Notes: generated from the letters alone by a model not told the origin. 64,000 nt of DNA from Thermodesulfovibrionales bacterium (GCA_041658585.1 JBAZZX010000002.1:4704-68703), one strand, 5' to 3'; shown: positions 3,255 through 50,591, counted from the first letter of the stretch. Translations and numbers: made by a program.

Positions 3255-3298
3255 TTTATACACTTGAACCCTTTAATAGTTTATTATGAGGAGTGGAT

Positions 3299-3775: not shown

Positions 3776-3841
3776 TGTCTGGGTATAAAGTCATGGTTTG
3801 TCACCCTCCGGCTTGTCGAAAGGCGGGTAAACTTGACCGGT

Positions 3842-4366
3842 CTACGAGTCTCCTTCTGTCTCATTCCCATATTCCCCTCTCATCCGAACGTAAGGAATAC
3901 TCAACAATATGTCATCGATAACTTTTTCTTCGATGCCGGTATCTTTTTTCTCATACAGAACGATACGCTGTACGCCGTCCTTAAGTACAGGTGCGATAAG
4001 CTTTCCTCCGGTCTTAAGCTGTGCGAAAAGAAGAGGAGGCACTTCGGTGCAGGCTGCTGTTATGCATATTCTGTCGTAGAGGGCCATTGCCGGATATCCT
4101 TGTCCACCATCACCCAGCACAAGGATGATATTATTAAGGCCCGATTGCTCAACAAATCTCTTGCCTTGCTCAAAGACAACCGGATCGATTTCAATGCATG
4201 CGACAAGCCCCTCTTCTCCGACTGTCTCACATGCAGTTACTGCGCTGTAGCCGCTTCCAAGGCCTATCTCAAGCAATTTATGGCCCTCCGCCAGACCAAG
4301 TGGCTCATAAAGTGTAATCATAGATAAATCATAAAACGTTTTATGAAAAAGTATCAAGCGCAACAA
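3842..4366 (-). CDS. pcm: Protein-L-isoaspartate O-methyltransferase, N-terminally short relative to the family
   Basis: SAM motif LEIGLGSGYSA and LYDRICITAACTEVPPLLFAQLKTGGKLIAPV. The ORF has only a TTG start or an internal ATG at 4321. The usual ~50-aa N-terminal region is absent. Confidence 0.7.
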   Translation of the reverse strand: MLRLILFHKTFYDLSMITLYEPLGLAEGHKLLEIGLGSGYSAVTACETVGEEGLVACIEIDPVVFEQGKRFVEQSGLNNIILVLGDGGQGYPAMALYDRICITAACTEVPPLLFAQLKTGGKLIAPVLKDGVQRIVLYEKKDTGIEEKVIDDILLSIPYVRMRGEYGNETEGDS

Positions 4367-4718: not shown

Positions 4719-5132
4719 ATGCTGATCGACATGAAAAATCAGTTTGAGAAATTGACGGATATTATTGTGAATAATGTTGATTCGTTCCATTTCGGTCACA
4801 GCGAATATCACGGTCCTGTAGACCCCTCGGCAATCGTCACTTTTGGTTCGGACATTATCAAAATTAACGCTCTCGTTTTGGCAGAGTCAGTCCCCACATT
4901 TCAACTTCCGATTAAGTTCGGGATGAATCTCTATGAAACGATCATAGTTCACCTCGACGAGAATTTTGACTTCACTGCTTACGATCCTGATGAAAGATCA
5001 CTGAATGAACTCAACATCTTGATGGGTAATACGGAATATTCATACGACGGCACAATCGCACAGGCAAAAGCCTGTTTCGATCAAATGAACTGGGCTTTCG
5101 ATGTATTGTATCGGAAAATAAATATTGAATAA
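4719..5132 (+). CDS. Hypothetical protein
   Basis: 137-aa ORF with a gggagg RBS 5 nt upstream of the ATG. No motif recognised. Confidence 0.5.
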   Translation: MLIDMKNQFEKLTDIIVNNVDSFHFGHSEYHGPVDPSAIVTFGSDIIKINALVLAESVPTFQLPIKFGMNLYETIIVHLDENFDFTAYDPDERSLNELNILMGNTEYSYDGTIAQAKACFDQMNWAFDVLYRKINIE

Positions 5133-7008
5133 AGAACTATTTGCAAAAATTTCACGCCTTATTCTGTTACTTCTCGTCTTCTTTTTCATTTTTGCCTCTT
5201 TTAATGCAAAAATCTGGGACCCGGATCTCTGGTGGCACCTGAAAACCGGTGAATACATAGCTCAGACGAAATCGATTCCTTCCACCGATCCATTTGCTTT
5301 TACCTCGCTGCCGCAAGATCCGATCCATCCCGAGTCCAAGAGAATAAAATTCATTCTGGGTCAATATTGGATAGCACAGCTTATCTTCTATTGGGTATAT
5401 GAGACGTTCTCTCTCCAGGGGATCATATACATGCGGGCCCTCATCCTCACCCTTCTGATCTTCCTGCTTTACAGAAGCATAAGAAGGGATAGGGTCGGTT
5501 TTTTCTCCGCCCTGCTCTTTCTTCTGCCTGCCGTCACAATTCTTGTCAACTTTACGGGAGAAAGGCCTCAGCTCTTTTCTTTCCTTTTCACGTTCCTGCT
5601 TGTTTTCCTGCTGGAGGGTTATAAAAAGGCGTCACAATCTGAAGCCATGACATCGCACAAAAAAGCCGTGTTGACTTACCTGTTGCCTTTGCCTTTTGTG
5701 ATGATGCTTTGGGCAAATATGCACGGCGGGTTCATCATTGGAATCGCTGTTCTCCTTGGGTACATATGCTGTGAAATTCTCAAGTATCTGACAAAAAAGG
5801 CCGGTCCACATCTTCAACTCCGCTCGTTGAAATATTTAATCGGCGCATGCGTCGCATCAATTATGTTTTCCCTCATCAATCCAAACGGATACAATGTCAT
5901 CCCTTTACTGATCGAGTTAAACAAGAGTCAGTATATGACATCAATCGTGGAGGCAAAGTCACCCCTTGTTTTCATTCAGTACGGGTACTACACGCAGGAG
6001 CTTTATGTATTCTTTTTCCTTCTGGCTGCCGGTTTTCTGCTGTTCCTGATCAATTTGAAGAGAGCAGACCTAACGGATGTCGTCATCTTTTCCGGTCTTG
6101 CGGCTCTTAGTTTGTCCGCGGCGAGGGTCATTCCATTTTTCACACCGGTATCGATCTTTATGCTTGCACGATATTGGAAGAAGAGCGTTCAGATATGGAG
6201 TTCCTCGACACTGATGTCAAGAATTAAAGAGAGGATGGTGAAGCTTCGTTCTCTTGCCGGTCCCGCATTTTCGGAGAGTTTCCTTGCCATAGTCTGCTCT
6301 GTTCTGATTATCGTTATGCTGAATAACGGCAATTATTTTCAGAGCGGCATTCGGAAGGGCCGGTATCCCGAGGGTGCGGTCAAATTCCTTAAGGAGAACA
6401 GGATTTACGGAAATATGTACAACCCTTATGTCTGGGGCGGATATCTGCTCTGGGCCCTCTATCCCGATTACAAAGTCTTCATTGACGGAAGAGGGCTGAT
6501 TGAAGAGGTTTTCTTTCAGTCGGACAGAATCATGGGTGCATCGTCCCTGCAGTTTGCCGGTGTTCCGGAATGGAAAGCTATAATAGATGCATATAACATA
6601 AACTTTATAGTAACATTCAGCGTCTCGGATTTCACCGGAAAACTCATTCCCCTTATCCCGGAGCTCAACTATGACCCTGAGTGGCATCTTGTCTACATGG
6701 ACAATTATTCGTTAATCTTTGTCAAAAATAGCCCGGAGAACCGGGGAATAATTGATAAATTCGACATGCCTAAGAACTGGGTCTGGAACGAAGTCTTGAC
6801 AGAGGCTGCAAAGAAAGCGGCCGATTTTAGGGGGAATGCGAATTATTATATAACAATGGGCGACGCTCTTGTCGCCAGAGAAAACTACCGCGATGCTCTG
6901 ACTGCATATCTCAAAGCCCAACAAAAAGCTCCGGATAACATTATTATCAGAGAAAAATTAAATATGATGCAGAAAACAGGTCGGGCGCCTGGACCCGCAA
7001 GCCCTTGA
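5125..7008 (+). CDS. Polytopic membrane protein with a C-terminal TPR-like tail (possibly GT-C-type glycosyltransferase-like)
   Basis: Many hydrophobic helices, an early-loop WDPDLWWHLKTGEY, and a C-terminal YYITMGDALVARENYRDALTAYLKAQQ. The function is a guess. Confidence 0.55.
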   Translation: MNKELFAKISRLILLLLVFFFIFASFNAKIWDPDLWWHLKTGEYIAQTKSIPSTDPFAFTSLPQDPIHPESKRIKFILGQYWIAQLIFYWVYETFSLQGIIYMRALILTLLIFLLYRSIRRDRVGFFSALLFLLPAVTILVNFTGERPQLFSFLFTFLLVFLLEGYKKASQSEAMTSHKKAVLTYLLPLPFVMMLWANMHGGFIIGIAVLLGYICCEILKYLTKKAGPHLQLRSLKYLIGACVASIMFSLINPNGYNVIPLLIELNKSQYMTSIVEAKSPLVFIQYGYYTQELYVFFFLLAAGFLLFLINLKRADLTDVVIFSGLAALSLSAARVIPFFTPVSIFMLARYWKKSVQIWSSSTLMSRIKERMVKLRSLAGPAFSESFLAIVCSVLIIVMLNNGNYFQSGIRKGRYPEGAVKFLKENRIYGNMYNPYVWGGYLLWALYPDYKVFIDGRGLIEEVFFQSDRIMGASSLQFAGVPEWKAIIDAYNINFIVTFSVSDFTGKLIPLIPELNYDPEWHLVYMDNYSLIFVKNSPENRGIIDKFDMPKNWVWNEVLTEAAKKAADFRGNANYYITMGDALVARENYRDALTAYLKAQQKAPDNIIIREKLNMMQKTGRAPGPASP

Positions 7009-11409: not shown

Positions 11410-11465
11410 ATGTACGATAAACTGGATGAAAAATATTGCAGCGCCGATCCGTCAAAATTCCATGC

Positions 11466-13463
11466 ATGACATTGAAAGAACGAAAGAATATTTTTACGTT
11501 GATTCCATGCATCATCTTTTCTTGGCTGGGGGAAAAAAATAGGGTTCTCTCTTCCGGGCGCATTGTAATATTTGTATTTGCGCTGTTTTTTTTTTCGGCA
11601 ATCTTCACATTACCCTATAAATCCTTAGCCATGTCAACAAATCAGGGAGGAATGGGAGGAACCGGACCGGAAACAGGAATCTCTTACTCTCAACTTTACG
11701 GAGGCAAAACTAAGGCAAGATATTCCTTCAGATTTGATGGCCTGGTTGAATTGACTTACCGAGACTCTACAATATTGACATCGTACAATGGTATAAGACA
11801 AAAAACCGGCTGGACTTCTTTCGGACAGCGGTACAAACTTGGCGGGCATGGTTTCATTTATCACCACAAGCTGCTTAAATATTACGTAAACGTAGGCTTT
11901 AACTCGGACAAAACAAAAAATGACAATGAGACAGGTTCTGTCAATTCAAAACAAATAACCTATGATCTGGGGTTGATTTTTTTTAACACGAGGCCGGTTA
12001 CTCTGGACCTTTATGCTTCGAGAACACTTTATGCCGGCGGCGGCTCCAACTTGACTGATGATTCTGTCTCCACATCATATGGCATCCGTTTGGTCTCGGT
12101 AAAAAAACCATTGCCTGTAATACGTATGGAATATTCCCATTGGGATTATCATGCCGAACGAATGGGCGGCACGAGGTTTTACGACGAATGGGAGGGGAAG
12201 TCCATAATTGTGAAACAAAAGGTCAAATACGAGACAATCAGCGACAGATTCGATATCTATGCAAACGGCTTTTGGAAGTCCCTAAAAACACGATATTCAT
12301 TCAGTTCCGGCTTTGTAAAATTTTCGACTCTGAACCGGGATTTCGATACGTTTTATATCAGGACCAGTTTCTATACGCAATTTAAAAGTAACCATTCTCT
12401 CTGGAGTTCTTTTCAGTATAGGAAGATTGACACATCAAAGCTTCTAAACATTTCATTTGATTACAAGCCGGTCCCCATCAAAAACATACATCATAGCTAC
12501 AGCTTTGAGTATATGAAATCGGAAACACCGGATACTAAATCAAATGCCTATATATTTGGCAGCCTATGGCGCTACCGGTTTTCTCCCAAGACCAATGCCA
12601 AAGTGGATTTCCATTACAGGCTCGGTTCAAATTCCGGAGACGACGAGACAGCCATAAAATTCGATGCTTCCATTAACCACGGCAGACCGTTAAAAGTATT
12701 CGATTTAATCACCCAGTATAACTTTTTTATCGGACAGGAAACAAACGACAATAATTTCACTTTTCTGGAAAATAGACTTTACCTTTCTCTGGCGACGAGG
12801 AAATACCGATGGGGGAAAATATATACGACTTATGACATCAGATACAATATCTTTAATTTTAAATTCAACTCAACAGACCCCGGCAAGCCCACATCAAAGG
12901 ATACTGACGAAATACAGCATAGATTCAGACTTGGAGCAAAAGTCAAAGGACCTTTAAGGGCTTCATGGTCCGTCGAACTGGAAGCCAGATACCTTGATTC
13001 CTCTGAAAAAAATGCAGGTGCATGGAAGAGTGTGTGGATAGGTGAAAATCAATGGGCGCAGAAGATCAGGCATTATTCCGCGAAGGCGGATCTCCGCTAC
13101 CCTATCGGAAGAAAAGGTACTTTGTCACTCGCCGGAAGCTATACCATGGGTGAGACGAATTCCCAACCGATCAGGAAGTATGATTATGAATCACGGTTGC
13201 ATTACAACATTTTCAGAGACCTCCGCTTTTCCGGCTGGTGGAGAGTTGAATGGCGAAGTGCAGGATGGTGGAGTAACGGCAACTTGCAAAATGTCGACAG
13301 GCAGTTTTACAATGATACGAAAACAACGGATTATCAATTCAACCTTGATTATGCCTGGAGAAAACTCTTTTTTTCGATGGAATACGCATGGACCAAATTT
13401 GAAGAAGGAACAATTGAAACAGATGCAAAACGTATGTATTTAAGGGTAAGCAGACCATTTTGA
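11466..13463 (+). CDS. Large outer-membrane beta-barrel-like protein (putative porin of the cytochrome conduit)
   Basis: ~666 aa from the ATG at 11466 (the ORF track starts at TTG 11436). It has a hydrophobic signal-like segment ...FFFSAIFTLPYKSLA, an aromatic-rich alternating pattern throughout, and a C-terminal ...YLRVSRPF. Confidence 0.65.
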   Translation: MTLKERKNIFTLIPCIIFSWLGEKNRVLSSGRIVIFVFALFFFSAIFTLPYKSLAMSTNQGGMGGTGPETGISYSQLYGGKTKARYSFRFDGLVELTYRDSTILTSYNGIRQKTGWTSFGQRYKLGGHGFIYHHKLLKYYVNVGFNSDKTKNDNETGSVNSKQITYDLGLIFFNTRPVTLDLYASRTLYAGGGSNLTDDSVSTSYGIRLVSVKKPLPVIRMEYSHWDYHAERMGGTRFYDEWEGKSIIVKQKVKYETISDRFDIYANGFWKSLKTRYSFSSGFVKFSTLNRDFDTFYIRTSFYTQFKSNHSLWSSFQYRKIDTSKLLNISFDYKPVPIKNIHHSYSFEYMKSETPDTKSNAYIFGSLWRYRFSPKTNAKVDFHYRLGSNSGDDETAIKFDASINHGRPLKVFDLITQYNFFIGQETNDNNFTFLENRLYLSLATRKYRWGKIYTTYDIRYNIFNFKFNSTDPGKPTSKDTDEIQHRFRLGAKVKGPLRASWSVELEARYLDSSEKNAGAWKSVWIGENQWAQKIRHYSAKADLRYPIGRKGTLSLAGSYTMGETNSQPIRKYDYESRLHYNIFRDLRFSGWWRVEWRSAGWWSNGNLQNVDRQFYNDTKTTDYQFNLDYAWRKLFFSMEYAWTKFEEGTIETDAKRMYLRVSRPF

Positions 13464-41111: not shown

Positions 41112-41134
41112 TCTTAATAATACCTTTAGATGAG

Positions 41135-41746: not shown

Positions 41747-42580
41747 TTACACCACCTTGAATGGGACAGGGATAAAGGTTAGGATGAATATGAACAGGGA
41801 CAGCCATCCTATAAAAGTTCTCTTACGGTCCAGGGGGACCTCCCAGTAAATTATAGGGGGATGCCGGAGACCGAGAACGAGCAGCAGAAGCGACCATACG
41901 ATCCAGCCTTCCCATAAGAATATCCCCAGGAGCGCCATCAACACAACAAGCAGGAATGAAAGCCTTTTGTGTTTTTCCCCAAGGAGCGCATAGGCAATAT
42001 GGCCGCCGTCGAGCTGTCCCACAGGGATAAGGTTCATTGAAGTCACAAAAAGTCCGATCCACCCTGCAAAGGCAACCGGATGCAATAGGATATCATAGCC
42101 TGCAGGCGCAACTCCCATAGTTACACGGGTAAGAAAAGAAAAGAGGAGAGAGTCCCCAAGGAAAAAGTCGGCTTTCGTAGAAGTTAACGGCGCCACTGCC
42201 GACATATTGAGGCCGATCACAGAGGCTATAACCGATATGATAAATCCGGCTACAGGACCTGACGCCCCGATATCTATAAGGGATTTCCTTGTCGCAATGG
42301 GCGACTTCATTTTTATGAACGCACCGAAGGTACCTATAAAATTCGGCGCCGGGATAAAATAAGGAAGCGAGGCGTTTACTCCGTGTTTCTTTGAAGCATA
42401 ATAATGCGAAAATTCATGGCTCAGGAGAATCGTCATCAAACTTGCGGCAAAGGGAATTCCTTTAGAAATGCTGCCCGGCTCACCGAGAATATCCGCGCCT
42501 GTCTGCAATGCGCCGACTGTCAGGGTCGAAAGCATTGTCAGGAGAAACAGGATTAGATGCAAAAAGGGAAATTTTTTCAT
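41747..42580 (-). CDS. M50-family site-2 metalloprotease
   Basis: HEFSHY motif, polytopic. Confidence 0.8.
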   Translation of the reverse strand: MKKFPFLHLILFLLTMLSTLTVGALQTGADILGEPGSISKGIPFAASLMTILLSHEFSHYYASKKHGVNASLPYFIPAPNFIGTFGAFIKMKSPIATRKSLIDIGASGPVAGFIISVIASVIGLNMSAVAPLTSTKADFFLGDSLLFSFLTRVTMGVAPAGYDILLHPVAFAGWIGLFVTSMNLIPVGQLDGGHIAYALLGEKHKRLSFLLVVLMALLGIFLWEGWIVWSLLLLVLGLRHPPIIYWEVPLDRKRTFIGWLSLFIFILTFIPVPFKVV

Positions 42581-42612
42581 TTAACCCGGATTATTTGTAG
42601 ATTTTTCTGATT

Positions 42613-42740
42613 GAACTGCAGATAGAGTACTTTCGCTCATTCTCGGTCGTTCCTCCCTGCGAGGCTTTTGCCTCTTTATTTTCATATACCGTATTTGACT
42701 ATCGGCAAAAAAAACCGCTCAAATACTCTATCCGCAGTTG
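42613..42740. mobile_element. Family-D MITE-like element
   Basis: Near-identical to 32547..32674. Confidence 0.8.
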
Positions 42741-42858
42741 CTGTTGCCAATTTTATGAATAATATAGGTTAGTTTATGTATCTTTATTATATTCCATTAC
42801 CAAACAAAAGGGCCTCTTTATAGAGACCCTTTCAGAATTTTGCGGAATTATAATATTT

Positions 42859-43293
42859 TTACGCCGTTCTTACGATATAAACCGAACAGGGCGCATGTGC
42901 TGCCACCTTTGAGGCTACACTCCCCATAAGGAACCTTGAGGCAGCCCCTCCAAGTCCGCGATTCCCTATGATAATCAGGTTAGTCTTGTCTTTCTCAGCC
43001 GTGCCAAGAATCTCGTCGGCAGCAGAGATGGCTGAAGAAAGGATCGTCTTTGAACTAACTCCTTCCGCCTTTAAGATGTTCTGCGCATTCTCAAGCACTT
43101 CCTCGCCACGTCTCTTCATAGACTCATTCAGACTGGCCATCTCTTTGGCAGAGATCTCGAGGTCAAGACCTGCGACAAAAGGAGAGACTGTCATTAAGGT
43201 GATATCAGCTCCCTTTGTCTTTGCATAATCCAGTGCCACCTTAACGCCTTCCGTCGAATATTTTGAACCGTCTACAGGAACCAGTATTTTCAT
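42859..43293 (-). CDS. Universal stress protein (cassette copy A)
   Basis: UspA pattern MKILVPVDGS...IIGNRGLGG...GSVA. Confidence 0.85.
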   Translation of the reverse strand: MKILVPVDGSKYSTEGVKVALDYAKTKGADITLMTVSPFVAGLDLEISAKEMASLNESMKRRGEEVLENAQNILKAEGVSSKTILSSAISAADEILGTAEKDKTNLIIIGNRGLGGAASRFLMGSVASKVAAHAPCSVYIVRTA

Positions 43294-43303
43294 TTTATCC
43301 TCC

Positions 43304-44032
43304 TTAGACTTCCTTCTTTACTTTGGCCTTTGACATCGTCAGTCCTATTCCCTCAAAGATGAAGAATATGGCAAAGCCCCACCACAAAGTATAAAAAACA
43401 TAAAATACCAGCAGGCCCGTCATCAGTCCGGCTTTATCTTTTACCTGTACGGCGTCTACCTTATAAAAATTATATGCCGCCTCAACCGCTTTTTTCATAA
43501 CGTCAGAGACAAGCTTCGCTTCCTCTACCATTTTCTCTTTTTTAAATGCCTTATCCATCTTTGTAAGGGCGGCATGCCAGTTTTTCAGAACATCTTTTTC
43601 ATTATATCCGTAGAGAGCGGTAACTTTGGCGCCGTCATTATGATACATGGCGTCCGCATCGTTAAGCACTGCAGTCATAGTCTTCCCGAGGTCCCCTTCT
43701 ATCTTCAATTCGGTTCCCGTAACTTCCACTTTAGCGCCTGCCGTAATAAATAGTTTTGCCGTGTTTTCAACCGTCTCCGGCTTATCAAGATTAATGCTAA
43801 GCATGAAATTTTTACCGATGAACTTTTCATTGCTCTTTACAACCTTCGGGATAAAATATGATGAGCCCTTCGCAAGTGTGTTAAACATTTCATCAGCCCA
43901 CTGTAATCCGTTTTGAGGCTGTCCGTCTACAGTCTTAGGAAAAATGGGTGAGAAAATAAGAAACAACACCACCCAGAACGATAGCGCGAGGACTATCCCA
44001 TAACCTAAATGTTTTTTTGCCGAACCTGCCAT
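43304..44032 (-). CDS. Two-TM protein of unknown function (cassette copy A)
   Basis: One N-terminal and one C-terminal hydrophobic helix flank a ~170-aa soluble domain. No motif recognised. Confidence 0.7.
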   Translation of the reverse strand: MAGSAKKHLGYGIVLALSFWVVLFLIFSPIFPKTVDGQPQNGLQWADEMFNTLAKGSSYFIPKVVKSNEKFIGKNFMLSINLDKPETVENTAKLFITAGAKVEVTGTELKIEGDLGKTMTAVLNDADAMYHNDGAKVTALYGYNEKDVLKNWHAALTKMDKAFKKEKMVEEAKLVSDVMKKAVEAAYNFYKVDAVQVKDKAGLMTGLLVFYVFYTLWWGFAIFFIFEGIGLTMSKAKVKKEV

Positions 44033-44033
44033 G

Positions 44034-45290
44034 TTAGCCCTCCTCTCTTAACTTTCCGATGTTAGTGACAAACTTGCTGATGACCCAGAAGCCGAAGAAT
44101 GCGACAACTATCCAGAAGATGATATTCCCTGCAAATTCTATGTTCGTAGTAAGAGATTTGTCCATATTGATATATTCAAGCTCGGTCAACTTTTTCGGCA
44201 GGGTTGAAGCCCTATTGATAAAACCGGCTATGATTGACATGGCATAGAATCCTCTGATTTGGATGCCCTTAACAACCTTTGTCGTGAGCGCACCAACCTG
44301 AATCCCTATCAGCGATCCGATAAGCATACCCATGGCAAGTGTATAGAAGACATACCCGTAAATCGCATACTGGAATATTGATGCAAGACCCGCCGTGAAG
44401 ATGATCTGCAGGATGTCGGTGCCGACTGTGGTTGCCGTTGAGACGCCGAAGATGTAGACGAACATCGGGAAGGTGACAAAGCCGCCGCCCACGCCCATGA
44501 TTGCGGCTAAAGCACCCACGATAACTCCGCCAATTGCTACAAACAGCCAGGAGATTCTTCTTCCGCCTATGTCCTCATCGAAGGTTATCATAGGAGGGAT
44601 ATTGATCTTCTGTATGTTTATTGATAGTCCTGTCATGCCTGAAGGACCGCCGTGTGCATCGTGTCCACCACCGCCTCCACCTGCCGGTTTCCTCGTGGAC
44701 TTGATAAAGTCAGCCATTGCATAGAACCCGAGGAACCCGAGCAATATGGCATAGACTGTACTAATAAATGCCTCGCTCAGCAACGGGTCTTTGTTGTAAA
44801 TTGTTTTATTGATCCAGCCGCCGATAAAGGTGCCACCGCTGGACCCTACAAGAAACGCTATCGCGAGCTTCACAGAAACGTTACCGAGTTTCTTATGAAC
44901 AGTAGTTCCCATAATAGCTTTTGCAAAGATATGGAAAACGTCCGTTCCAACAGCAAGGATGCCTTTTACTCCGGCTGCCATCAATGCCGGAGTGATGATG
45001 AATCCGCCTCCAGCGCCGATGCAGCCTGTTATCAGACCCGCTGCCAGACCTACAGCTATCGAAACCATGAAAATCATGTTCGAATAGTGCGCAGGGGCAT
45101 ACGCGGTCTTACCTCCTATCATATCTGCTGCCTGCAGGAATGATATCCCCAGTATCGGCAGCAGCATGAGACCCAGGATTAAAAGTTTCTTCCTGCTTTT
45201 AATGATGCTCATTGAAACCTCGTAATCCCACTTCGCGTGAGCTATGGACGCCATCTTAAGGAACTCATATATCTTTCTTGGAAAACTCAT
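44034..45290 (-). CDS. TauE/SafE-type (DUF81) permease, extended form (cassette copy A)
   Basis: GAGGGFIITPALM and GVGGGFVTFPMF half-repeats. Central loop GGGGGGHDAHGGPSG. Confidence 0.8.
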   Translation of the reverse strand: MSFPRKIYEFLKMASIAHAKWDYEVSMSIIKSRKKLLILGLMLLPILGISFLQAADMIGGKTAYAPAHYSNMIFMVSIAVGLAAGLITGCIGAGGGFIITPALMAAGVKGILAVGTDVFHIFAKAIMGTTVHKKLGNVSVKLAIAFLVGSSGGTFIGGWINKTIYNKDPLLSEAFISTVYAILLGFLGFYAMADFIKSTRKPAGGGGGGHDAHGGPSGMTGLSINIQKINIPPMITFDEDIGGRRISWLFVAIGGVIVGALAAIMGVGGGFVTFPMFVYIFGVSTATTVGTDILQIIFTAGLASIFQYAIYGYVFYTLAMGMLIGSLIGIQVGALTTKVVKGIQIRGFYAMSIIAGFINRASTLPKKLTELEYINMDKSLTTNIEFAGNIIFWIVVAFFGFWVISKFVTNIGKLREEG

Positions 45291-45429
45291 GGAAAATCCT
45301 CCTTTTGATTATTGGAATTTCTCCGGTAGCTATTAATATCGATCTCCCGTTATCCCCCTCCTCTCAATGAATATTTTTTAACGCCGCTAAGATGGATTTG
45401 ATGAATATCACAACCGCGAATCCAACCAC

Positions 45430-45575
45430 TTATTAGAGTCTGTGTATAAACTGCGATTCAAGCAGTCCGTCATTCTCCGACTCGATCGGGGAATCCAGTC
45501 TTTTCAATGGGCTATAGATCCCCCGGTCAAGCCGGAGGATGACAAAACCTGAGTTTATACACAGACACTTATTAA
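45430..45575. mobile_element. Inverted-repeat element (family E, single copy in the window)
   Basis: ttattagagtctgtgtataaact ... agtttatacacagacacttattaa. Confidence 0.6.
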
Positions 45576-45784
45576 TCATCATTATTTCATATCTTTATGA
45601 CATTAAAGTAATAAGCATCTGCAATATAAATTGATAACGGGTGGAATGTCAAGATTTTTCTTTATCACTGCTTAATTAACGGAAATAAGAGATATTTTAT
45701 AGTAATAAATCTATAAATTATTCCGTACAAATCAAGCATATAAATGTTATTGAATTTTATTATATGAAGACAGGCCCAGGCAGG

Positions 45785-45813
45785 AAAAAAAGGGGGCCTC
45801 CGTAAGGAGGCCC
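45785..45813 (-). terminator. Terminator after the cassette-B usp gene
   Basis: gggcctcc / ttac / ggaggccc followed by a T-run on the minus strand. Confidence 0.7.
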
Positions 45814-45854
45814 TGAATCTGTATTGAAAGAGGGGTTGGATGAGTCTTACGTTC

Positions 45855-46289
45855 TTATGCCGCTTTAACTATATAAACCGAACAGGGCGCATGTGCTGCC
45901 ACCTTTGAGGCTACACTCCCCATAAGGAACCTTGAGGCAGCCCCTCCAAGTCCGCGATTCCCTATGATAATCAGGTTAGTCTTGTCTTTCTCAGCCGTGC
46001 CAAGAATCTCGTCAGCAGCGGAGATGGCCGAAGAAAGGATCGTCTTTGAGCTCACCCCTTCCGCCTTTAAGATGTTCTGCGCATTCTCAAGCACTTCCTC
46101 GCCGCGTCTCTTCATAGACTCATTCAGACTGGACATCTCTTTGGCAGAGATCTCGAGGTCAAGACCTGCGACAAAAGGAGAGACTGTCATTAAGGTAATA
46201 TCAGCCCCCTTTGTCTTTGCATAGTCCAGCGCCACCTTAACGCCTTCCGTCGAATATTTAGAACCGTCTACAGGAACCAGTATTTTCAT
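45855..46289 (-). CDS. Universal stress protein (cassette copy B)
   Basis: Differs from copy A at 3 of 144 residues. Confidence 0.85.
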   Translation of the reverse strand: MKILVPVDGSKYSTEGVKVALDYAKTKGADITLMTVSPFVAGLDLEISAKEMSSLNESMKRRGEEVLENAQNILKAEGVSSKTILSSAISAADEILGTAEKDKTNLIIIGNRGLGGAASRFLMGSVASKVAAHAPCSVYIVKAA

Positions 46290-46299
46290 TTTATCCTCC

Positions 46300-47067
46300 T
46301 TAGACTTCCTTCTTTACTTTGGCCTTTGACATCGTCAGTCCTATTCCCCCGAAGATGAAGAATATCGCAAAGCCCCACCACAAAGTATAGAAAACATAGA
46401 ATACCAGCAGGAACGTCATCAGAAAAACCTCATCCTTGACCTTTTTTGCATCAACTCCGTAGAAGTTGTATGAGGCCTCAACCGCCTTCTTGGTCACATC
46501 AGAGACGATCTTCGCTTCCTCGATCTTTCCTTCTTTCTTGAAGGCCTTGTCTATCTTGGGCAATACATTATTCCACTGCCTGAACAGCTGCTTCATATCG
46601 TCAGTGCCCATTGCCTCTGCATATTTGGCCTTGATCTTGTCACCTTCATTCTTAAACATCATATCTGCATCCTCTAAAGCTGCCTTCAGCACAACACCAA
46701 GGTCTCCTTCGATCTTTAGTTGAGCGCCGTTGACTACAACCTTGGCGCCCGGATTAATCATAAACAGCTTGGATGCCCGTTCAGCCCTTTTCTCAGCGTC
46801 ACCCGGCTTGTCCTCAGGCTTACTCACATTGATAGTAGCTGAAAACATTTTGCCCATAAACTTCTCATTGCTCTTTTGTACCTTGGGAATGAAATATGAC
46901 GAACCCTTCGCAAGCTGGTTGAACAACTCATCAGCCCAGTCTAATCCATTCTGAGGTTGTCCCTCTGGAGTTTTCGGGAAAATTGGCGAAAATATCAGAA
47001 ATAATACTACCCAAAAGGAGAGGGCCATGACTATCCCGAAACCCAAATGTTTTTTTGCCTGTGCCAT
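46300..47067 (-). CDS. Two-TM protein of unknown function (cassette copy B)
   Basis: The termini are conserved with 43304..44032 and the centre is divergent. 255 aa. Confidence 0.7.
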   Translation of the reverse strand: MAQAKKHLGFGIVMALSFWVVLFLIFSPIFPKTPEGQPQNGLDWADELFNQLAKGSSYFIPKVQKSNEKFMGKMFSATINVSKPEDKPGDAEKRAERASKLFMINPGAKVVVNGAQLKIEGDLGVVLKAALEDADMMFKNEGDKIKAKYAEAMGTDDMKQLFRQWNNVLPKIDKAFKKEGKIEEAKIVSDVTKKAVEASYNFYGVDAKKVKDEVFLMTFLLVFYVFYTLWWGFAIFFIFGGIGLTMSKAKVKKEV

Positions 47068-47069
47068 TT

Positions 47070-48326
47070 CTATCCCTCCTCTCTTAATTTTCCGATGTTT
47101 GCAAAGAACTTGCTGATGACCCAGAAGCCGAAGAATCCGACAACGATCCAGAAGATGATATTCCCGGCATATTCTATTTTCGAAGTAATAGACGGCGATA
47201 TGTTGATATATTCAAGTTCGGTCAGTTTTTTCGGCAGGGTTGAGGCCCTGTTGATAAAACCTGCTATGATAGACATAGCATAGAATCCCCTGATGTGGAT
47301 TCCCTTCACGACTTTTGTCGTGAGCGCGCCGACCTGGATTCCGATCAGCGAACCGATAAGCATTCCCATCGCGAGCGTATAGAACACATAGCCGTAAATC
47401 GCATACTGGAATATCGATGCAAGACCTGCGGTGAAGATGATCTGGAGGATGTCAGTGCCGACTGTCGTGGCTGTTGAAACGCCGAAGATGTAAACAAACA
47501 TCGGGAAAGTGACAAAGCCGCCGCCGACACCCATGATTGCGGCTAAAGCACCCACGATCAATCCGCCTATTGCAACAAAGAGCCAGGAGATCCTTCTTCC
47601 GCCGAAGTCTTCATCAAAGGTTATCATAGGAGGGATATTGATCTTTTGTATGCTTATTGACAGGGGAGTCATCCCTGATGGCCCGCCATGGGCGTCGTGT
47701 CCGCCACCGCCTCCGCCTGCCGGTTTCCTCGTTGATTTGATAAAATCTATCATGGCATATGTACCGAGGAAGCCTAACAATACTGCATAGACCGTACTGA
47801 TAAATGCTTCACTTAACAAGGGGTCTTTGTTGTAGATTGTTTTATTGAGCCAGCCGCCAATAAAGGTGCCACCGCTCGAACCGATAAGAAATGCGATTGC
47901 TAATTTTACCGATACGTTACCGAGCTTCTTGTGAACTGTCGTCCCCATAATAGCTTTCGCAAAGATATGGAAAACATCTGTTCCAACGGCAAGGATACCT
48001 TTAACGCCTGCTGCCATAAGTGCCGGAGTGATAATAAACCCTCCTCCTGCACCGATACAACCGGTTATAAGACCCGCTGCCAGCCCCACTGCTATCGAAA
48101 CCATGAATATCATGTTCGAATAGTGTGCAGGGGCATATGCGGTCTTACCGCCTATCATATCAGCTGCCTGCAAGAGTGTTATAGCCAGTATCGGCATTAA
48201 AAGAATAAAAAGGATAAGAAGTTTCTTTCGATTTTTAATGATGCTCATCGAAACTTCATAATCCCACTTCGCATGGGCTATACTGGCTGCTTTCAGAAAT
48301 TCATACATCTGTCTCGGAAAACTCAT
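47070..48326 (-). CDS. TauE/SafE-type permease, extended form (cassette copy B)
   Basis: Collinear with 44034..45290 and also 418 aa. Confidence 0.8.
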   Translation of the reverse strand: MSFPRQMYEFLKAASIAHAKWDYEVSMSIIKNRKKLLILFILLMPILAITLLQAADMIGGKTAYAPAHYSNMIFMVSIAVGLAAGLITGCIGAGGGFIITPALMAAGVKGILAVGTDVFHIFAKAIMGTTVHKKLGNVSVKLAIAFLIGSSGGTFIGGWLNKTIYNKDPLLSEAFISTVYAVLLGFLGTYAMIDFIKSTRKPAGGGGGGHDAHGGPSGMTPLSISIQKINIPPMITFDEDFGGRRISWLFVAIGGLIVGALAAIMGVGGGFVTFPMFVYIFGVSTATTVGTDILQIIFTAGLASIFQYAIYGYVFYTLAMGMLIGSLIGIQVGALTTKVVKGIHIRGFYAMSIIAGFINRASTLPKKLTELEYINISPSITSKIEYAGNIIFWIVVGFFGFWVISKFFANIGKLREEG

Positions 48327-48360
48327 CTCAAAACCTCCTTTTTAGGCATATTTACTTTTG

Positions 48361-49098
48361 TCACTTAATTCTATCAAATTCCATCTGTAACTTTTGTCTT
48401 GTCCCGCAACCTGTCAATCTTGAAAAAGCAATAGGGATTCCATCCGAGCTGATAATGGTCCTGCTTATAAGCAATGCCCAATCCCCGTCCCTGCCCTTTA
48501 CCGCTGAAGGCACATTATCGGTAGTCTTTGTCACCTCAACAGACTGTATAACCTTGAATATCTTTTTGACGCCTTTATCCTCTATCAAGTCATAAATTGA
48601 TCTGCCGGACAGATTCTCACTGTCAATATCAGGGAGGATAAAAAGCGGAATAAATAATTCTTCTCTGTAAGATTCATCGTTAACGGTTTTTTTATAAAGA
48701 ATGTAGTATATTTCACCCTCATTCATAAAAATCTTTCTTATCTCTTCCGTCACTCCCCTTAACCCCCTGTCTAAAATTTCTTTTTCCGTTTTCACCTCCT
48801 CTCCAAAGACGTCTTCCGATAATCTTGCCCTCATGATAATCCCCTGATGCGGCTCCGACAATGTTACAAAGGTTCCCTTTCCTTGTAGTCTCTTAAGATA
48901 ACCTTCCCTTACTAATTCCTGAATGGCTTCACGGACCGTCACCTTGCTTACATGATAGATTCTGCAGAGTTCGTCTTCGGGAGGGATCTGCGCCCCTGCA
49001 GGCCATTCTCCGTTTTCGATCTTTTCCAGAAAGATCGAATATATCTGGACATAAAGTTTTTCCTTGCTTCCTCTGTCTACTGTTTTTTCAATCTTCAT
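48361..49098 (-). CDS. GntR-family (HutC/UTRA-type) transcriptional regulator
   Basis: YHVSKVTVREAIQELVREGYLKRLQGKGTFV plus a C-terminal effector domain. Confidence 0.8.
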   Translation of the reverse strand: MKIEKTVDRGSKEKLYVQIYSIFLEKIENGEWPAGAQIPPEDELCRIYHVSKVTVREAIQELVREGYLKRLQGKGTFVTLSEPHQGIIMRARLSEDVFGEEVKTEKEILDRGLRGVTEEIRKIFMNEGEIYYILYKKTVNDESYREELFIPLFILPDIDSENLSGRSIYDLIEDKGVKKIFKVIQSVEVTKTTDNVPSAVKGRDGDWALLISRTIISSDGIPIAFSRLTGCGTRQKLQMEFDRIK

Positions 49099-49138
49099 AT
49101 GCTTATTAATTCATGTCTTTATAACTAATCATAAATAA

Positions 49139-49154
49139 AGCAATGAATGTGCCA
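49139..49154 (-). promoter_or_regulatory. Sigma-54 (-24/-12) promoter
   Basis: The minus strand reads TGGCAC-attca-TTGCT. It lies ~40 nt upstream of the gntR start. Confidence 0.7.
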
Positions 49155-49206
49155 TACGCGTAACATGCCGATACTAAAGCTATATTTTAATTATTGAAGA
49201 ATAAAT

Positions 49207-49281
49207 TGCAACTTATTGTTGCAATTACCTTGCAATAAACACTGTTTTGTGGCTTTTTTAGATGTGCAATTTAATGTTGCG
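49207..49281. promoter_or_regulatory. Two palindromic candidate enhancer (UAS) sites
   Basis: TGCAAC-ttatt-GTTGCA (49207-49223, perfect) and TGCAAT-ttaat-GTTGCG (49265-49281). Confidence 0.5.
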
Positions 49282-49289
49282 GAGAAACA

Positions 49290-50591
49290 TTATGTTTCTA
49301 TTTTTAGTTTTCTGAGTTTTCTTTGGAGCTGCTGCCGGTGTATGCCGAGTTCAAAGGCTGCCTTTGAGATATTACCGCCTGACTTTTGCAGGGAAGACCA
49401 GATTAATTCTTTCTCGACATTTTTAATAGTCTCTTTCAGCTTTAGAGAAGGGCTTATCTTTTGCGACGGGAATTGCTGCAAACTTGCAGGCAGGTCCGCA
49501 GGGAGTATATCGGGACTGTTTGCAAAAGATACGGCGCGTTCTATAATATTCTCAAGTTCCCTGATATTACCGGGATAGGAATAGTTTGTCAGAATGCTCA
49601 TGGCTTCTTCGCTTATGTTTTTGATCAGCAGGTCCTTCCTCTTGTGGGCATGTTTTTCGATAAAATGATTCACTAAAACGGAAATATCTTCAATCCTGTT
49701 TCTTAAAGGCGGCAGATGGATGTTTATAACATTCAGCCTGTAAAACAGGTCTTCCCTGAAAACGCCCTTTTTGCAGGCCATATCAAGGTCTATGTTGGTT
49801 GCGGAAATGATCCTCAGATTCACTTTCTTTTGCCGGGAACCGCCTATTCTCATAACATCGCCTTCCTGCAATACCCTCAGGATTTTTACCTGGAAGAGTG
49901 GAGATACGTCTCCGATCTCGTCAAAGAATACGGTACCTCCGTCGGCAATCTCAAGCAGACCTTTTTTTGTATAATTGGCGCCGGTGAAGGCCCCCTTTTC
50001 GAAACCGAAAAGTTCCGATTCAAGCAGGGTATCGGGGATGGCGCTGCAGTTGATGACGGCAAAAGACCTTTCGTTCCTCGGGCTCCATTTATGAATCGCG
50101 CGTGCGACAAGCTCCTTTCCTGTACCGCTTTCTCCCGTAATCAATACGTTGCTCTCGCTTACGGCAGCCTTTTTGATAAGACCGAAGACCCCCTGCATCA
50201 GCGCGCTCGTTCCTATAGTTTCATCAAAACCATATTCCGTATTGAGTATCTTCTTTTTGTGTCCCTTGATGATGTCGCTTAAGATTTCAGCGGTAAGGGG
50301 TTTTTCGATGTAATCCGTTGCGCCGAGCCTCATTGCTTCTACGGCCTTTTTTACATCAGGAGTTGAAAAGGTGATGACGGGGATCTGCTGCCGCAGGTCT
50401 AATAAACTCTGTTTCCATTCCTTGACGTCAAGGTCGAGGAGGGCTAAATCATATTGCAGCAAATTCACGGGATCGGTGCCGACCGGAATGCCTTTTTGTT
50501 TCATGTCCTGCTTGCCGGCCGTAATCCTTACGGATTTAAATAATGCGGCTATTTTTTTCGATTCGCCGGAAATAACGAGCACATTGCGCAT
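49290..50591 (-). CDS. Sigma-54-dependent activator (NtrC family: receiver, AAA+, Fis-type HTH)
   Basis: GESGTGKELVARAIH and GAFTGA. C-terminal HTH AAFELGIHRQQLQRKLRKL. Confidence 0.88.
   Translation of the reverse strand: MRNVLVISGESKKIAALFKSVRITAGKQDMKQKGIPVGTDPVNLLQYDLALLDLDVKEWKQSLLDLRQQIPVITFSTPDVKKAVEAMRLGATDYIEKPLTAEILSDIIKGHKKKILNTEYGFDETIGTSALMQGVFGLIKKAAVSESNVLITGESGTGKELVARAIHKWSPRNERSFAVINCSAIPDTLLESELFGFEKGAFTGANYTKKGLLEIADGGTVFFDEIGDVSPLFQVKILRVLQEGDVMRIGGSRQKKVNLRIISATNIDLDMACKKGVFREDLFYRLNVINIHLPPLRNRIEDISVLVNHFIEKHAHKRKDLLIKNISEEAMSILTNYSYPGNIRELENIIERAVSFANSPDILPADLPASLQQFPSQKISPSLKLKETIKNVEKELIWSSLQKSGGNISKAAFELGIHRQQLQRKLRKLKIET

Follow-up and report, generated by a model that had tools for sequence, protein, structure and literature searches.

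The closest described relatives of the proteins reported here are permeases of the TSUP/TauE-SafE family (PF01925; TC 2.A.102), whose members have been linked to sulfite, sulfonate, or sulfate transport although what TSUP proteins carry is poorly defined (PMC5840216). The family includes TauE of Cupriavidus necator, TsaS, and the TSUP-type "CysZ" of Corynebacterium glutamicum. One further member, Desor_1745 of Desulfosporosinus orientis, has been listed as a putative sulfate transporter, and an island beside sat/aprAB was described in that organism (Marietou et al. 2018, PMC5840216). The same work names DVU2958, Adeg_0175, and Dret_2118 as "clade B" TSUP candidate sulfate transporters; neither its text nor its supplement assigns Desor_1745 to a clade. 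Higher levels of a TauE protein and a "co-occuring transmembrane protein" were recorded in Dissulfuribacter when it disproportionated thiosulfate (PMC13490349); the annotation is a co-occurrence label that says nothing of structure, topology, fusion, or function.

The window analyzed here is a 64,000-nt stretch of DNA from a Thermodesulfovibrionales bacterium. It carries two cassettes whose permeases share with the TSUP family both the core match and a 4+4 repeat with GxGGGF motifs. Unlike the Pfam TSUP core, the cassette permease is ∼170 residues longer, with a conserved N-terminal helix (MSFPRxxYEFLKxASxAHAKWDYEV), TM0, and TM9, and in every case a protein that has two transmembrane helices and a periplasmic domain (the 2-TM protein) accompanies it or is fused to it; we found no such partner described for characterized TSUP members. 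Desor_1745 is orthologous to the window permease (58% identity over the full length), and the next gene encodes a protein 39% identical to the window 2-TM protein. PMC5840216 treats the Desor_1745 permease alone, and we found no mention there of a 2-TM partner or a Usp. The Dissulfuribacter pair, in which the TauE gene adjoins that of the unnamed transmembrane protein DITHS69_1989, is similar to ours by description. An earlier note on this DNA, made from the sequence alone, could assign the permease/2-TM/Usp trio to no described system; this holds insofar as the 2-TM protein matches no characterized family, but the pairing had not gone wholly unnoticed. We consider the architecture and evolutionary history of the cassettes set out below to be very probable, and the best overall explanation, which blends architecture and history with a sulfur-oxyanion substrate, to be fairly probable.

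Two tandem three-gene cassettes

Comparison by blastn delimited two head-to-tail units, A (42856-45306) and B (45852-48342), offset by 2996-3038 nt. Each encodes a permease, a 2-TM protein, and a Usp, and all six ORFs lie on the minus strand:

42859-43293, minus strand: Usp A, 144 aa; PF00582, 1.6e-25
43304-44032, minus strand: 2-TM protein type A, 242 aa; begins 1 nt after the permease stop codon
44034-45290, minus strand: permease A, 418 aa; Pfam TauE
45855-46289, minus strand: Usp B, 144 aa; near-identical paralogue of Usp A
46300-47067, minus strand: 2-TM protein type B, 255 aa; conserved insert DKPGDAEKRA
47070-48326, minus strand: permease B, 418 aa; 93% amino acid identity to permease A

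The ORFs and blastn units bear out the tandem duplication that the earlier note had described, including its observation that the repeat edges nearly coincide with the first and last codons of the cassette: they lie 16 nt 5' of the permease ATG and 3 nt beyond the usp stop codon. Housekeeping genes flank the window cassettes. The possibility of an assembly artifact, also raised at the time, is set aside because three independent assemblies share the arrangement. Loci L081 (ENA), L091 (NCBI GCA_964532535.1), and L001 of our survey each have the B cassette, the A cassette, and then M50-rplI-dnaB, where the contig reaches; nucleotide identity to the window is ∼89-90% for L081 and 97-99% for L091, a conspecific of the window genome. 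The trio proved to be widely conserved beyond its source. Of the 73 informative cases among 80 related genome loci, all 73 have the permease gene immediately 5' of the 2-TM gene, mostly with a gap of <10 nt, and in 57 of 72 cases a Usp gene lies no more than 700 nt downstream.

An extended TSUP permease and its 2-TM partner

Permease A was identified as a TauE protein by Pfam (PF01925; 6.5e-36, 124.6 bits against a gathering cutoff of 32.6, residues 78-356), and all 120 of the closest permease homologues carry the same domain. It has an internal 4+4 TM repeat with a Gly-rich motif in helix 1 of each half (GAGGGFIITPALM and GVGGGFVTFPMF), giving the GAGGGF and GVGGGF motifs of the TSUP core. 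Beyond this core lie an N-terminal cytoplasmic helix and two additional transmembrane helices, TM0 and the C-terminal TM9, as mapped on the model of a natural fusion, P0424, in which the helices at both Gly-rich motifs are broken. No TSUP chain was detectable by sequence among PDB sequences; among structures, BacA/UppP (6fmt) alone matched the model meaningfully, with a probability of 0.94.

The permease and 2-TM genes are 1 nt apart in cassette A and 2 nt apart in cassette B; the linkage was strict in all 73 informative cases, and in most the spacing was as tight as translational coupling would require. The two proteins also occur as a single chain: we identified >50 distinct natural full-length TauE::2-TM fusions of 592-770 aa, covering 92-98% of the query, in Kiritimatiellales, Victivallales, Planctomycetes, Sumerlaeota, Firmicutes, and Deltaproteobacteria. 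In these fusions the permease C-tail is joined to the 2-TM N-tail, consistent with a cytoplasmic location of both. P0424, whose identity to the window proteins is 50% for the permease and 31% for the 2-TM protein, was modeled as one compact protein (pLDDT, 91.3; pTM, 0.86), a result that describes the natural fusion and not the window proteins. Because of this adjacency, the fusions, and the compact, confident model, the 2-TM protein is most likely an integral transporter subunit with a periplasmic cap; the suggestion that it partners the permease is thereby upheld. The cassette would then encode a secondary transporter of two membrane proteins, an extended TSUP/TauE permease and an obligate 2-TM subunit whose ∼165-residue domain would cap the periplasmic face of the permease. 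The two proteins presumably make physical contact in the source organism.

Regulatory and intergenic elements

The regions 5' of the two cassettes contain the following features:

49290-50591, minus strand: σ54 enhancer-binding protein, 433 aa, directly upstream of the B operon; GAFTGA in translation
49204-49235, minus strand: TTGCAA-containing dyad repeats, AATTGCAACAATAAGTTGCAATT; candidate upstream activating site for the enhancer-binding protein
49140-49154, minus strand: predicted σ54 −24/−12 promoter, TGGCACATTCATTGC, 42 nt upstream of the gntR ATG
48361-49098, minus strand: GntR/HutC-type regulator (GntR HTH plus UTRA; Pfam GntR, 7.8e-19; UTRA, 5.6e-09), first gene of the B operon
45794-45813, minus strand: predicted intrinsic terminator after uspB, GGGCCTCC-TTAC-GGAGGCCC and then a T run; 8 pairs, 7 of them G-C
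45623-45652, minus strand: predicted σ70-like promoter of cassette A, TTGACA-18-TATATT; 11/12 matches, joint best in the scanned region, a consensus match only
45430-45568, unstranded: MITE-like hairpin of 139 nt in the cassette A leader; terminal inverted repeats GTGTCTGTGTATAAACT, flanking TAATAAG duplication

Cassette B is preceded by a −24/−12 element and by an adjoining gene for an enhancer-binding protein with an AAA+ domain and GAFTGA (Pfam Sigma54_activat, 3.8e-66; AAA_lid_14; HTH_8). Nowhere else in the 64-kb window is TGGCAC-N5-TTGC matched exactly; TGGCA[CT]-N5-TTGCT occupies the same position in L091, L005, L007, and L019, and an exact σ54 consensus lies 100-440 nt 5' of the permease gene in seven other loci. 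The same enhancer-binding gene precedes gntR-permease in L005, L006, L007, L019, and L091, and similar TTGCA..TGCAA dyads are found at the same place in L007, L019, L006, and L005; the protein probably binds these dyads. Pfam recognized no sensor domain strongly in the window enhancer-binding protein and gave only a weak receiver-domain match in its L091 orthologue. The gntR gene is 34 nt from permease B, and a GntR homologue is upstream of the permease in 25 of the 59 loci with enough sequence. As predicted from these elements, cassette B is cotranscribed with gntR from a conserved σ54 promoter, and cassette A is driven by its own predicted σ70-like promoter. The cassettes would thus differ in control, B through σ54/gntR and the adjoining enhancer-binding protein and A through the σ70-like promoter. 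The MITE-like hairpin (fold z = −5.1) is absent at exactly that point in L081 and present in L091; its relatives are a partial copy at 3774-3815 and one copy in L031.

Gene neighborhoods and candidate substrate

The neighborhoods of related cassettes suggest a sulfur oxyanion as substrate, a plausible but tentative assignment made because SulP/DASS, aprA, and sulfatase and maturase genes are repeatedly adjacent. The substrate would most likely be sulfate and possibly sulfite or thiosulfate. In D. orientis (CP003108) the order is aprA, SulP plus Usp, DASS, and then the cassette orthologue and Usps, which fits the published loci (SulP, 1738; DASS, 1742; TSUP, 1745); this is the published island beside sat/aprAB (PMC5840216). 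A DASS gene is 1.7 kb downstream of the cassette in D. gibsoniae, and DASS adjoins the cassette in L012, L028, L034, L035, and L049. The Pfam family concerned, Na_sulph_symp, also covers carboxylate carriers. SulP adjoins the cassette in L072 and also a Kiritimatiellales fusion gene. Elsewhere a sulfatase gene and then an anaerobic sulfatase maturase-like radical-SAM/SPASM gene run collinearly into a fusion gene, which follows after 18 nt. The abundance of the Dissulfuribacter pair during thiosulfate disproportionation may be a further link to sulfur oxyanions. The D. hafniense cassette is <5 kb from a molybdopterin oxidoreductase cluster, and the contexts of L088, L090, and L093 were uninformative.

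A different substrate for the same two-subunit transporter, namely, an organic acid or other small solute under GntR/HutC, two-component, and σ54 control, is the alternative that survives best, and we consider it unlikely. It is supported by the recurrent neighbors, namely, GntR/UTRA, kinases of the HAMP or dCache-PAS kind, NtrC-type regulators, and a PPDK_N/PEP-utilizer protein (26 loci); GntR/UTRA, dCache kinases, and the PPDK_N/PEP-utilizer protein fit an organic substrate equally well, no sulfur-metabolism gene adjoins the cassettes in the window, and the poor definition of TSUP substrates (PMC5840216) leaves room for it. However, adjacency to SulP/DASS recurs in three phyla, the D. orientis cassette is beside aprA, and a sulfatase and maturase precede a fusion gene. 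The family is, moreover, concentrated in sulfate reducers and sulfur disproportionators and in those Kiritimatiellales, Victivallales, and Planctomycetes lineages that have the fusion.

If the substrate is a sulfur oxyanion, a bolder proposal can be made, which we regard as rather doubtful: the cassette would be the chief means by which dissimilatory sulfate reducers and disproportionators take up sulfate (sulfur oxyanions), its cap a tethered substrate-capturing or gating module of undescribed fold that exists in A and B modes and is alone spared by gene conversion. Cap types A (σ70-like) and B (σ54/GntR) would then be high- and low-affinity modes or serve different oxyanions; in any case, the difference between them probably has functional meaning. 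Given its genomic neighbors, the cassette can be put forward, in a form open to testing, as a candidate for the long-sought transporter that brings sulfate into sulfate-reducing bacteria.

Topology and conservation of the 2-TM protein

Type A has both termini in the cytoplasm and a periplasmic domain of ∼165 aa, and its AF2 model is of high confidence (pLDDT, 94.4). In Pfam and NCBIfam no family reached the cutoff for the 2-TM protein and none was common to more than 3 of 35 members; the best hit of a profile search of the PDB was noise (E value, 0.23), and Foldseek gave a best E value of 0.29 against PDB folds. The 2-TM protein therefore matches no characterized family. Family conservation peaks at the membrane-proximal DxxFNxLSKGSxYFIP, at AVEPAYNFYGI, and in TM2, and the A/B differences are in the distal domain.

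The layout of TM, periplasmic domain, and TM resembles sensor input modules, and we considered whether the 2-TM protein might serve in the periplasm as a sensor or cosensor that reports ligand or transporter state to the neighboring kinases or to the enhancer-binding protein, rather than as a structural part of the transport pathway. The frequent presence of kinases (39/80 loci) and σ54 regulators (38/80 loci) as neighbors would suit such a role, as would the want of a strongly recognized sensor domain in the window enhancer-binding protein. This role is nonetheless improbable. The 2-TM protein has no output domain, since its cytoplasmic tails are ≤11 residues long; >50 members are covalently fused to the permease, and the fusion loci examined have no adjoining two-component genes; and TM2 and the membrane-proximal motifs are the most conserved parts, as expected of a packing interface.

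TeaD, an ATP-binding Usp of Halomonas elongata, is encoded with the TRAP transporter TeaABC and regulates its activity. The cassette Usp is likewise small and encoded directly downstream of transporter genes in the same operon, and by analogy it may be a transport modulator: a small cytoplasmic, cotranscribed Usp would modulate transport as TeaD does for TeaABC. The transporter class differs, and the spacing of the Gly motif is atypical (GNRG-LGGAASRFLM-GS). ATP binding by the Usp is uncertain because 10 residues separate G-x2-G and G-S, rather than the 9 of the UspFG type, G-2x-G-9x-G(S/T).

Divergence and gene conversion

Sliding-window comparison confirmed that A/B divergence is very uneven. 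The last ∼580 nt (2-TM C-terminal helix, junction, and usp) are ∼96% identical; the permease genes are ∼83% identical, and the center of the 2-TM gene is 32-65% identical in 60-nt windows (172/256 aligned amino acids; synonymous sites saturated). Synonymous divergence rises in steps: dS is 0.16 in usp, 0.87 in the permease gene, and >2 in the 2-TM gene. Usp A and Usp B are identical at 141/144 residues and the permeases at 387/418. The permease differences are spread as unevenly as the earlier note had indicated, with 11/77 in the N-terminal extension and 10/62 in the C-terminal extension, versus 10/279 in the Pfam TauE core.

The 2-TM types form separate clades of 23 (A) and 100 (B) proteins, the B members being 254-256 aa long. 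Window type B is 78-84% identical to the B types of most genomes compared (72% for L007), versus 71% to copy A. From these separate clades and the saturated synonymous divergence of the central domains (pN, 0.23; pS, 0.83), it follows that the duplication is ancient and that the cassettes are ancient paralogues. It had been suggested that the exposed domain may be diversifying. We reject this: the window and L081 share 95-99% identity in the central domain of type A, with ω of ∼0.07-0.08 between these orthologues, and a search of the exposed domain for dN/dS of >1 or excess nonsynonymous change found neither. As dN/dS was 0.05-0.18 across all comparisons, there is no sign of diversifying selection.

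One tract stands out in the four-copy comparison of the window with L081:

42860-43440, minus strand: recent B-to-A gene-conversion tract covering the 2-TM C-terminal helix, junction, and usp; A/B identity of 0.90-1.00 in sliding windows, dS of 0.16

In the 5' half of usp, window copy A matches window copy B at.94-.98 and the L081 B copy at.97-.98, but the L081 A copy at only.73-.88; in the 3' half, the two L081 copies match at.98-1.0. The A copy of L082 is ≥99% identical to that of L081 elsewhere and only.81-.86 in the usp 3' half. Within usp, window copy A thus groups with B copies, apart from its A orthologues in L081 and L082. At 44123-43989 the L081 B copy is A-like (.92-.97), versus.71-.89 for window copy B. 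Further tracts were found at the permease-3'/2-TM-5' junction and inside the permease, in both directions. Homogenization of the 3' part by conversion, suggested earlier, therefore stands, but conversion is not confined to that part. With phylogenetic incongruence along the cassette and step changes in synonymous divergence both seen, we conclude that the mosaic reflects recurrent gene conversion or recombination in both directions, and that usp and TM2 were overwritten from B to A in the source lineage.

Different constraint on the three genes after a single duplication without conversion, or an assembly artifact, is a highly improbable source of the mosaic and was rejected: purifying selection on Usp and permease (ω, ∼0.06) is strong enough alone to keep the proteins similar, but synonymous divergence differs 5- to >13-fold between adjoining segments, the Usps of other genomes are 64-78% identical to the window Usp, the high identity of the window pair is not simply constraint because the L001 copies are only 70% identical to each other, the trees are incongruent along the cassette with two further genomes, and three independent assemblies are collinear over the tandem arrangement.

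Recurrent conversion and recombination, between the copies and with outside alleles, homogenize usp, TM2, and parts of the permease, and the cap types stay distinct throughout; we therefore read the distinct caps as selection for two functional variants. The translocation cores of A and B are nearly identical, with the differences in the cap and in the permease extensions, which probably lie beside it. As in concerted evolution of tandem paralogues, the flanks are homogenized, tract edges are abrupt, conversion runs both ways, and a divergent center is kept. The mechanism is ordinary, and the cassettes provide a multigenome example of it in an uncultivated Thermodesulfovibrionales lineage. Some tracts may have arisen by recombination with outside alleles instead of the neighboring copy, since differences between the window and its L081 orthologues are heterogeneous, with dS ranging from 0.14 to 0.68.

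Tandem copies of a permease/2-TM protein/Usp cassette

The head-to-tail duplication of three minus-strand genes described in the earlier note was recovered by ORF translation, repeat finding, and blastn. Each copy encodes a permease, a protein with two transmembrane helices (2-TM protein), and a Usp. The six ORFs are as follows.

44034-45290, minus strand, permease A (418 aa)
43304-44032, minus strand, 2-TM protein A (242 aa)
42859-43293, minus strand, Usp A (144 aa)
47070-48326, minus strand, permease B (418 aa)
46300-47067, minus strand, 2-TM protein B (255 aa)
45855-46289, minus strand, Usp B (144 aa)

The repeat units (A, 42856-45306; B, 45852-48342) begin 16 nt before the permease ATG, end 3 nt past the usp stop codon, and are separated by 545 nt of unique sequence. 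An assembly artefact was rejected as the source of the duplication, since the tandem arrangement is collinear in three independent assemblies. L091 (NCBI MAG contig GCA_964532535.1) is conspecific, at 97 to 99.4% identity to the window, with the gene order YajQ, enhancer-binding protein, GntR, cassette B, cassette A, M50, L9, DnaB. L081, an ENA Thermodesulfovibrionales contig, is ∼89 to 90% identical, and the more distant L001 (72 to 84% amino acid identity) reads 2-TM(256)-usp-permease-2-TM(242)-usp-M50-rplI-dnaB.

Duplicated cassettes were also seen elsewhere. In a Desulfobulbus sp. MAG, two 2-TM proteins from one 90% cluster (P0278 and P0279) are encoded on a single contig, seven genes apart by locus tag, and the cassette has therefore been duplicated in a distant lineage too. 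Locus L005 has two B-type cassettes, with the enhancer-binding protein and gntR genes between them.

Ancient paralogues homogenized by gene conversion

Divergence between the copies is as uneven as first noticed, and it is stepped in both nucleotide identity and dS. The permeases share ∼83% of nucleotides and 387 of 418 residues (dS 0.87). The center of the 2-TM gene falls to 32 to 65% nucleotide identity in 60-nt windows with saturated dS (pS 0.7 to 0.8), and the whole protein matches at 172 of 256 aligned residues. The last ∼580 nt, comprising the 2-TM C-terminal helix, the gene junction, and usp, are ∼96% identical (dS 0.16; Usp, 141/144 residues).

The duplication is ancient, and A and B are old paralogous operons. 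A set of 123 close 2-TM homologues forms two clades, A (n = 23; 237 to 261 aa, mostly 242) and B (n = 100; nearly all 254 to 256 aa), and the insert DKPGDAEKRA is common to the B-type proteins inspected. The window's B protein is 78 to 84% identical to most B proteins of other genomes (72% to that of L007) versus 71% to its neighbor A.

For the window (W), L081, L082, and L001, cassettes A and B were aligned and compared in 90-nt windows. Orthologues group in the 2-TM center (43850-43450), where identities are 0.95 to 0.99 for W_A/L81_A, 0.79 to 0.94 for W_B/L81_B, and 0.49 to 0.69 for W_A/W_B. The pattern flips in the 5' half of usp: W_A matches W_B (0.94 to 0.98) and L81_B (0.97 to 0.98) better than its positional orthologue L81_A (0.73 to 0.88), and copy B sequence therefore replaced this part of the window's copy A once the lineages had split. 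The 3' homogenization by gene conversion proposed at the outset is thus supported. The 3' half of usp in L081 records a separate, very recent event: L81_A and L81_B are 0.98 to 1.0 identical there, and L82_A is 0.81 to 0.86 identical to L81_A over this stretch versus at least 99% elsewhere. At 44123-43989, the 3' end of the permease gene and the 5' end of the 2-TM gene, L81_B is A-like (0.92 to 0.97), which indicates a tract in the opposite direction. A patch at 44072-43872 sets L091 apart from the window and yields a 237-aa A protein; among the loci compared, L091 itself excluded, the patch best matches a third lineage, L008 (86.5%), and exchange with outside alleles therefore contributes too. 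The mosaic results from recurrent gene conversion and recombination.

Two other accounts of the mosaic were weighed. Diversification of the exposed domain, suggested in the earlier note, is not supported: dN/dS is 0.05 to 0.18 in every comparison, the central domain between orthologues included, as expected of purifying selection. Constraint alone was rejected because the L001 Usp pair shares only 70% identity (Usp proteins of other genomes share 64 to 78% with the window's) and because the tree pattern flips along the cassette. The 2-TM center is old, conserved within each type, and consistently spared by conversion. Tandem paralogues are well known to evolve in concert; this locus offers a clean natural example in which one domain is spared, with regulatory divergence between the copies.

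The 2-TM protein as a probable permease subunit

Pfam identified the permease as TauE (PF01925, residues 78 to 356) and the small protein as Usp; the 2-TM protein had no match. By sequence, the permease clearly belongs to TSUP/TauE, as an extended subtype. The 2-TM partner belongs to no described family, with neither a Pfam match nor a PDB relative. Its family comprises 1,886 matches at 90% clustering, all unnamed or "hypothetical," and 339 clusters at 50% identity; a cluster look-up of ten distant representatives likewise returned "hypothetical protein" for every named member. At least 592 species genomes contain a relative, and the top matches come chiefly from Nitrospirota/Thermodesulfovibrionales and Syntrophobacteraceae.

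The trio is conserved well beyond this genome. Across 80 loci, the extended permease lies immediately upstream of all 73 2-TM genes with room for it, mostly with gaps of <10 nt, and a Usp gene follows within 700 nt in 57 of 72. Starting from a single fused protein, a search returned more than 50 distinct full-length permease::2-TM fusions (592 to 770 aa) from Kiritimatiellales, Victivallales, Planctomycetes, Sumerlaeota, Firmicutes, and Deltaproteobacteria, in which the permease C-tail continues into the 2-TM N-tail. This joint fits a positive-inside reading of the charges flanking the helices (KKH ahead of TM1, KAKVKKEV after TM2), a reading that would place both 2-TM termini in the cytoplasm and the ∼165-residue domain in the periplasm.

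AlphaFold2 predicted the window 2-TM protein with a pLDDT of 94.4, as two TM helices, a helical bundle, and a small α/β subdomain. The permease and 2-TM genes of the window occupy different reading frames, and the natural fusion P0424, whose parts are 50% and 31% identical to the window proteins, served as a stand-in for the pair; it was modeled as one compact protein (pLDDT 91.3, pTM 0.86). Given the linkage, the fusions, and this model, the 2-TM protein is most likely a subunit of the permease, which agrees with the partnership first proposed, and it appears to be an obligate one. Since the partner appears to be required, a permease expressed alone may fail, and the two are better studied together.

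PDB fold and profile searches found no solved structure resembling the 2-TM domain: Foldseek gave nothing below E = 0.29. Residues ∼83 to 144 aligned below significance with the MTH1187/YkoF-like UPF0045 ligand-binding fold (MJ1052; E 0.29 by fold, 0.43 by profile). No TSUP chain was detectable in the PDB by sequence, and the sole meaningful structural match to the TSUP core of the P0424 model was BacA/UppP (6fmt; probability 0.94, TM-score 0.50), an undecaprenyl-pyrophosphate phosphatase that is likewise an interdigitated inverted-repeat membrane protein.

Conservation in the 2-TM family is highest in DxxFNxLSKGSxYFIP, AVEPAYNFYGI, and TM2, and the positions that distinguish A from B map to the distal domain. 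The permeases differ at 10 of 279 positions in the TauE core versus 11 of 77 and 10 of 62 in the family-specific extensions. The A/B-variable loop INMDKSLTTNIEF / INISPSITSKIEY precedes the extra last helix and is periplasmic on our topology reading. The translocation core is therefore common to both cassettes, and it is in the periplasmic accessory parts that they differ; we infer contact between the periplasmic domain of the 2-TM protein (the cap) and the periplasmic extensions of the permease.

Residues 1 to 31 of the permease (in 44034-45290), outside the Pfam TauE core, form an N-terminal cytoplasmic helix, MSFPRxxYEFLKxASxAHAKWDYEV, whose conservation extends from Nitrospirota to Firmicutes and Kiritimatiellales. 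Usp or another regulator may dock on this helix.

Promoter elements of the two copies

The following elements were located around the cassettes.

49140-49154, minus strand, σ54 -24/-12 consensus TGGCACATTCATTGC, the sole exact match in the whole 64-kb window
45813-45794, minus strand, predicted strong terminator after uspB
45652-45623, minus strand, σ70-like promoter TTGACA-18-TATATT (consensus match) ahead of cassette A

The σ54 element occupies the interval that separates gntR from the enhancer-binding protein gene, 42 nt ahead of gntR. The gap from gntR to permease B is 34 nt, so that cassette B would be read together with gntR, as gntR-permB-2TMB-uspB. The putative σ54 promoter and an upstream TTGCAA dyad are kept in L091, L005, L007, and L019, and an exact σ54 consensus precedes the permease in seven other loci. 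From these distinct promoter elements, the two cassettes are predicted to be wired differently.

Rfam gave no match at E ≤ 1 over 42400-49400. A 139-nt hairpin in the cassette A leader (45430-45568) was rejected as a riboswitch; it is a mobile, MITE-like insertion with terminal inverted repeats GTGTCTGTGTATAAACT and a flanking TAATAAG duplication, absent at the exact site in L081, present in L091, and with a related copy in L031 (12551-12697).

Genomic neighbors and possible substrate

Sulfate import in dissimilatory sulfate reducers is an open question, and none of the three SulP permeases of Desulfovibrio vulgaris is essential for sulfate transport (PMC5840216, PMC5947623). The neighborhoods bearing on substrate are as follows.

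Desulfosporosinus orientis (L083, CP003108): aprA, SulP plus Usp, DASS, and after these the orthologous permease and 2-TM genes (58% and 39% identity) with Usps
Desulfoscipio gibsoniae: DASS gene 1.7 kb downstream of the cassette
Five Nitrospirota loci: DASS gene adjoining the cassette
L072, a MAG labelled "uncultured delta proteobacterium": SulP adjoining the cassette
Kiritimatiellales: SulP adjoining the fusion gene
L089, one metagenomic contig: sulfatase, radical-SAM/SPASM maturase-like gene, then the fusion gene after 18 nt
Desulfitobacterium hafniense: molybdopterin oxidoreductase cluster within 5 kb of the cassette

The D. orientis order matches Desor_1738/1742/1745, placed beside sat-aprAB in PMC5840216, where its permease appears only as an item in a list of putative sulfate transporters. 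During thiosulfate disproportionation by Dissulfuribacter thermophilus, levels rose for a TauE protein and for its "co-occuring transmembrane protein," a putative counterpart of the 2-TM protein (PMC13490349); there the pairing was noted as an annotation label only. The literature reachable by search held no paper describing the 2-TM partner, the fusions, or the Usp linkage.

A sulfur-oxyanion signal in gene neighborhood thus recurs across phyla. Three loci had uninformative contexts, the DASS Pfam family covers carboxylate carriers too, and the recurrent regulators (GntR/UTRA, dCache kinases, and a PPDK_N/PEP-utilizer protein in 26 of 80 loci) do not point to sulfate. Judged on gene neighborhood, the chances that the substrate is a sulfur oxyanion are about even. 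The cassette is a concrete, widespread (at least 592 species genomes), and testable candidate for the sulfate-uptake step of dissimilatory sulfate reducers, one that brings a previously unappreciated second subunit without a known fold and a dedicated Usp.

Three ∼205-aa paralogues without a Pfam match (CP003108 4213-4830, 5340-5972, and 12232-12852; motif NYPIW..NPK.P) are scattered between the genes for putative sulfate transporters in the D. orientis island. The PPDK_N plus PEP-utilizer mobile domain protein (867 aa; for example, L056:9833-12436) has no recognized C-terminal domain and recurs beside the cassette in company with kinases and receiver proteins.

Proposed mechanism

The analysis documented ancient paralogous operons, strict permease/2-TM linkage and fusion, a compact and confident fold, purifying selection, conversion tracts, and distinct promoter elements. 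In the mechanism we propose, the periplasmic cap would cover the TSUP core at its external mouth and set access, affinity, or selectivity. Usp would bind the cytoplasmic face, perhaps through the permease's conserved N-terminal helix or its Gly/His-rich central loop, and tune activity by energy or stress state. TeaD tunes TeaABC in a comparable way and serves as the model for this role. Types A and B may be two operating modes expressed under different conditions, and selection for both could explain why conversion has never fixed across the cap.

Other insertions and ORFs

A partial second copy of one arm of the MITE-like element (88% over 42 nt) lies at 3774-3815, adjoining ORFs at 3293-4366. 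A second insertion, of ∼190 nt with inverted ends CTGCAGATAGAGTA ... TACTCTATCCGCAG, lies at ∼42590-42780 in the spacer separating uspA from the M50 peptidase gene; it is absent from L091, whose uspA-M50 spacer is 87 nt versus 278 nt in the window. The rplI-dnaB spacer shows a further insertion/deletion polymorphism, 23 nt in the window (41112-41134) versus ∼90 nt in L091 (9951-10040). Two plus-strand ORFs, 5125-7008 (627 aa) and 11436-13463 (675 aa), had no Pfam match at E ≤ 1e-5 and belong to a run of plus-strand ORFs at about 5 to 16.6 kb.
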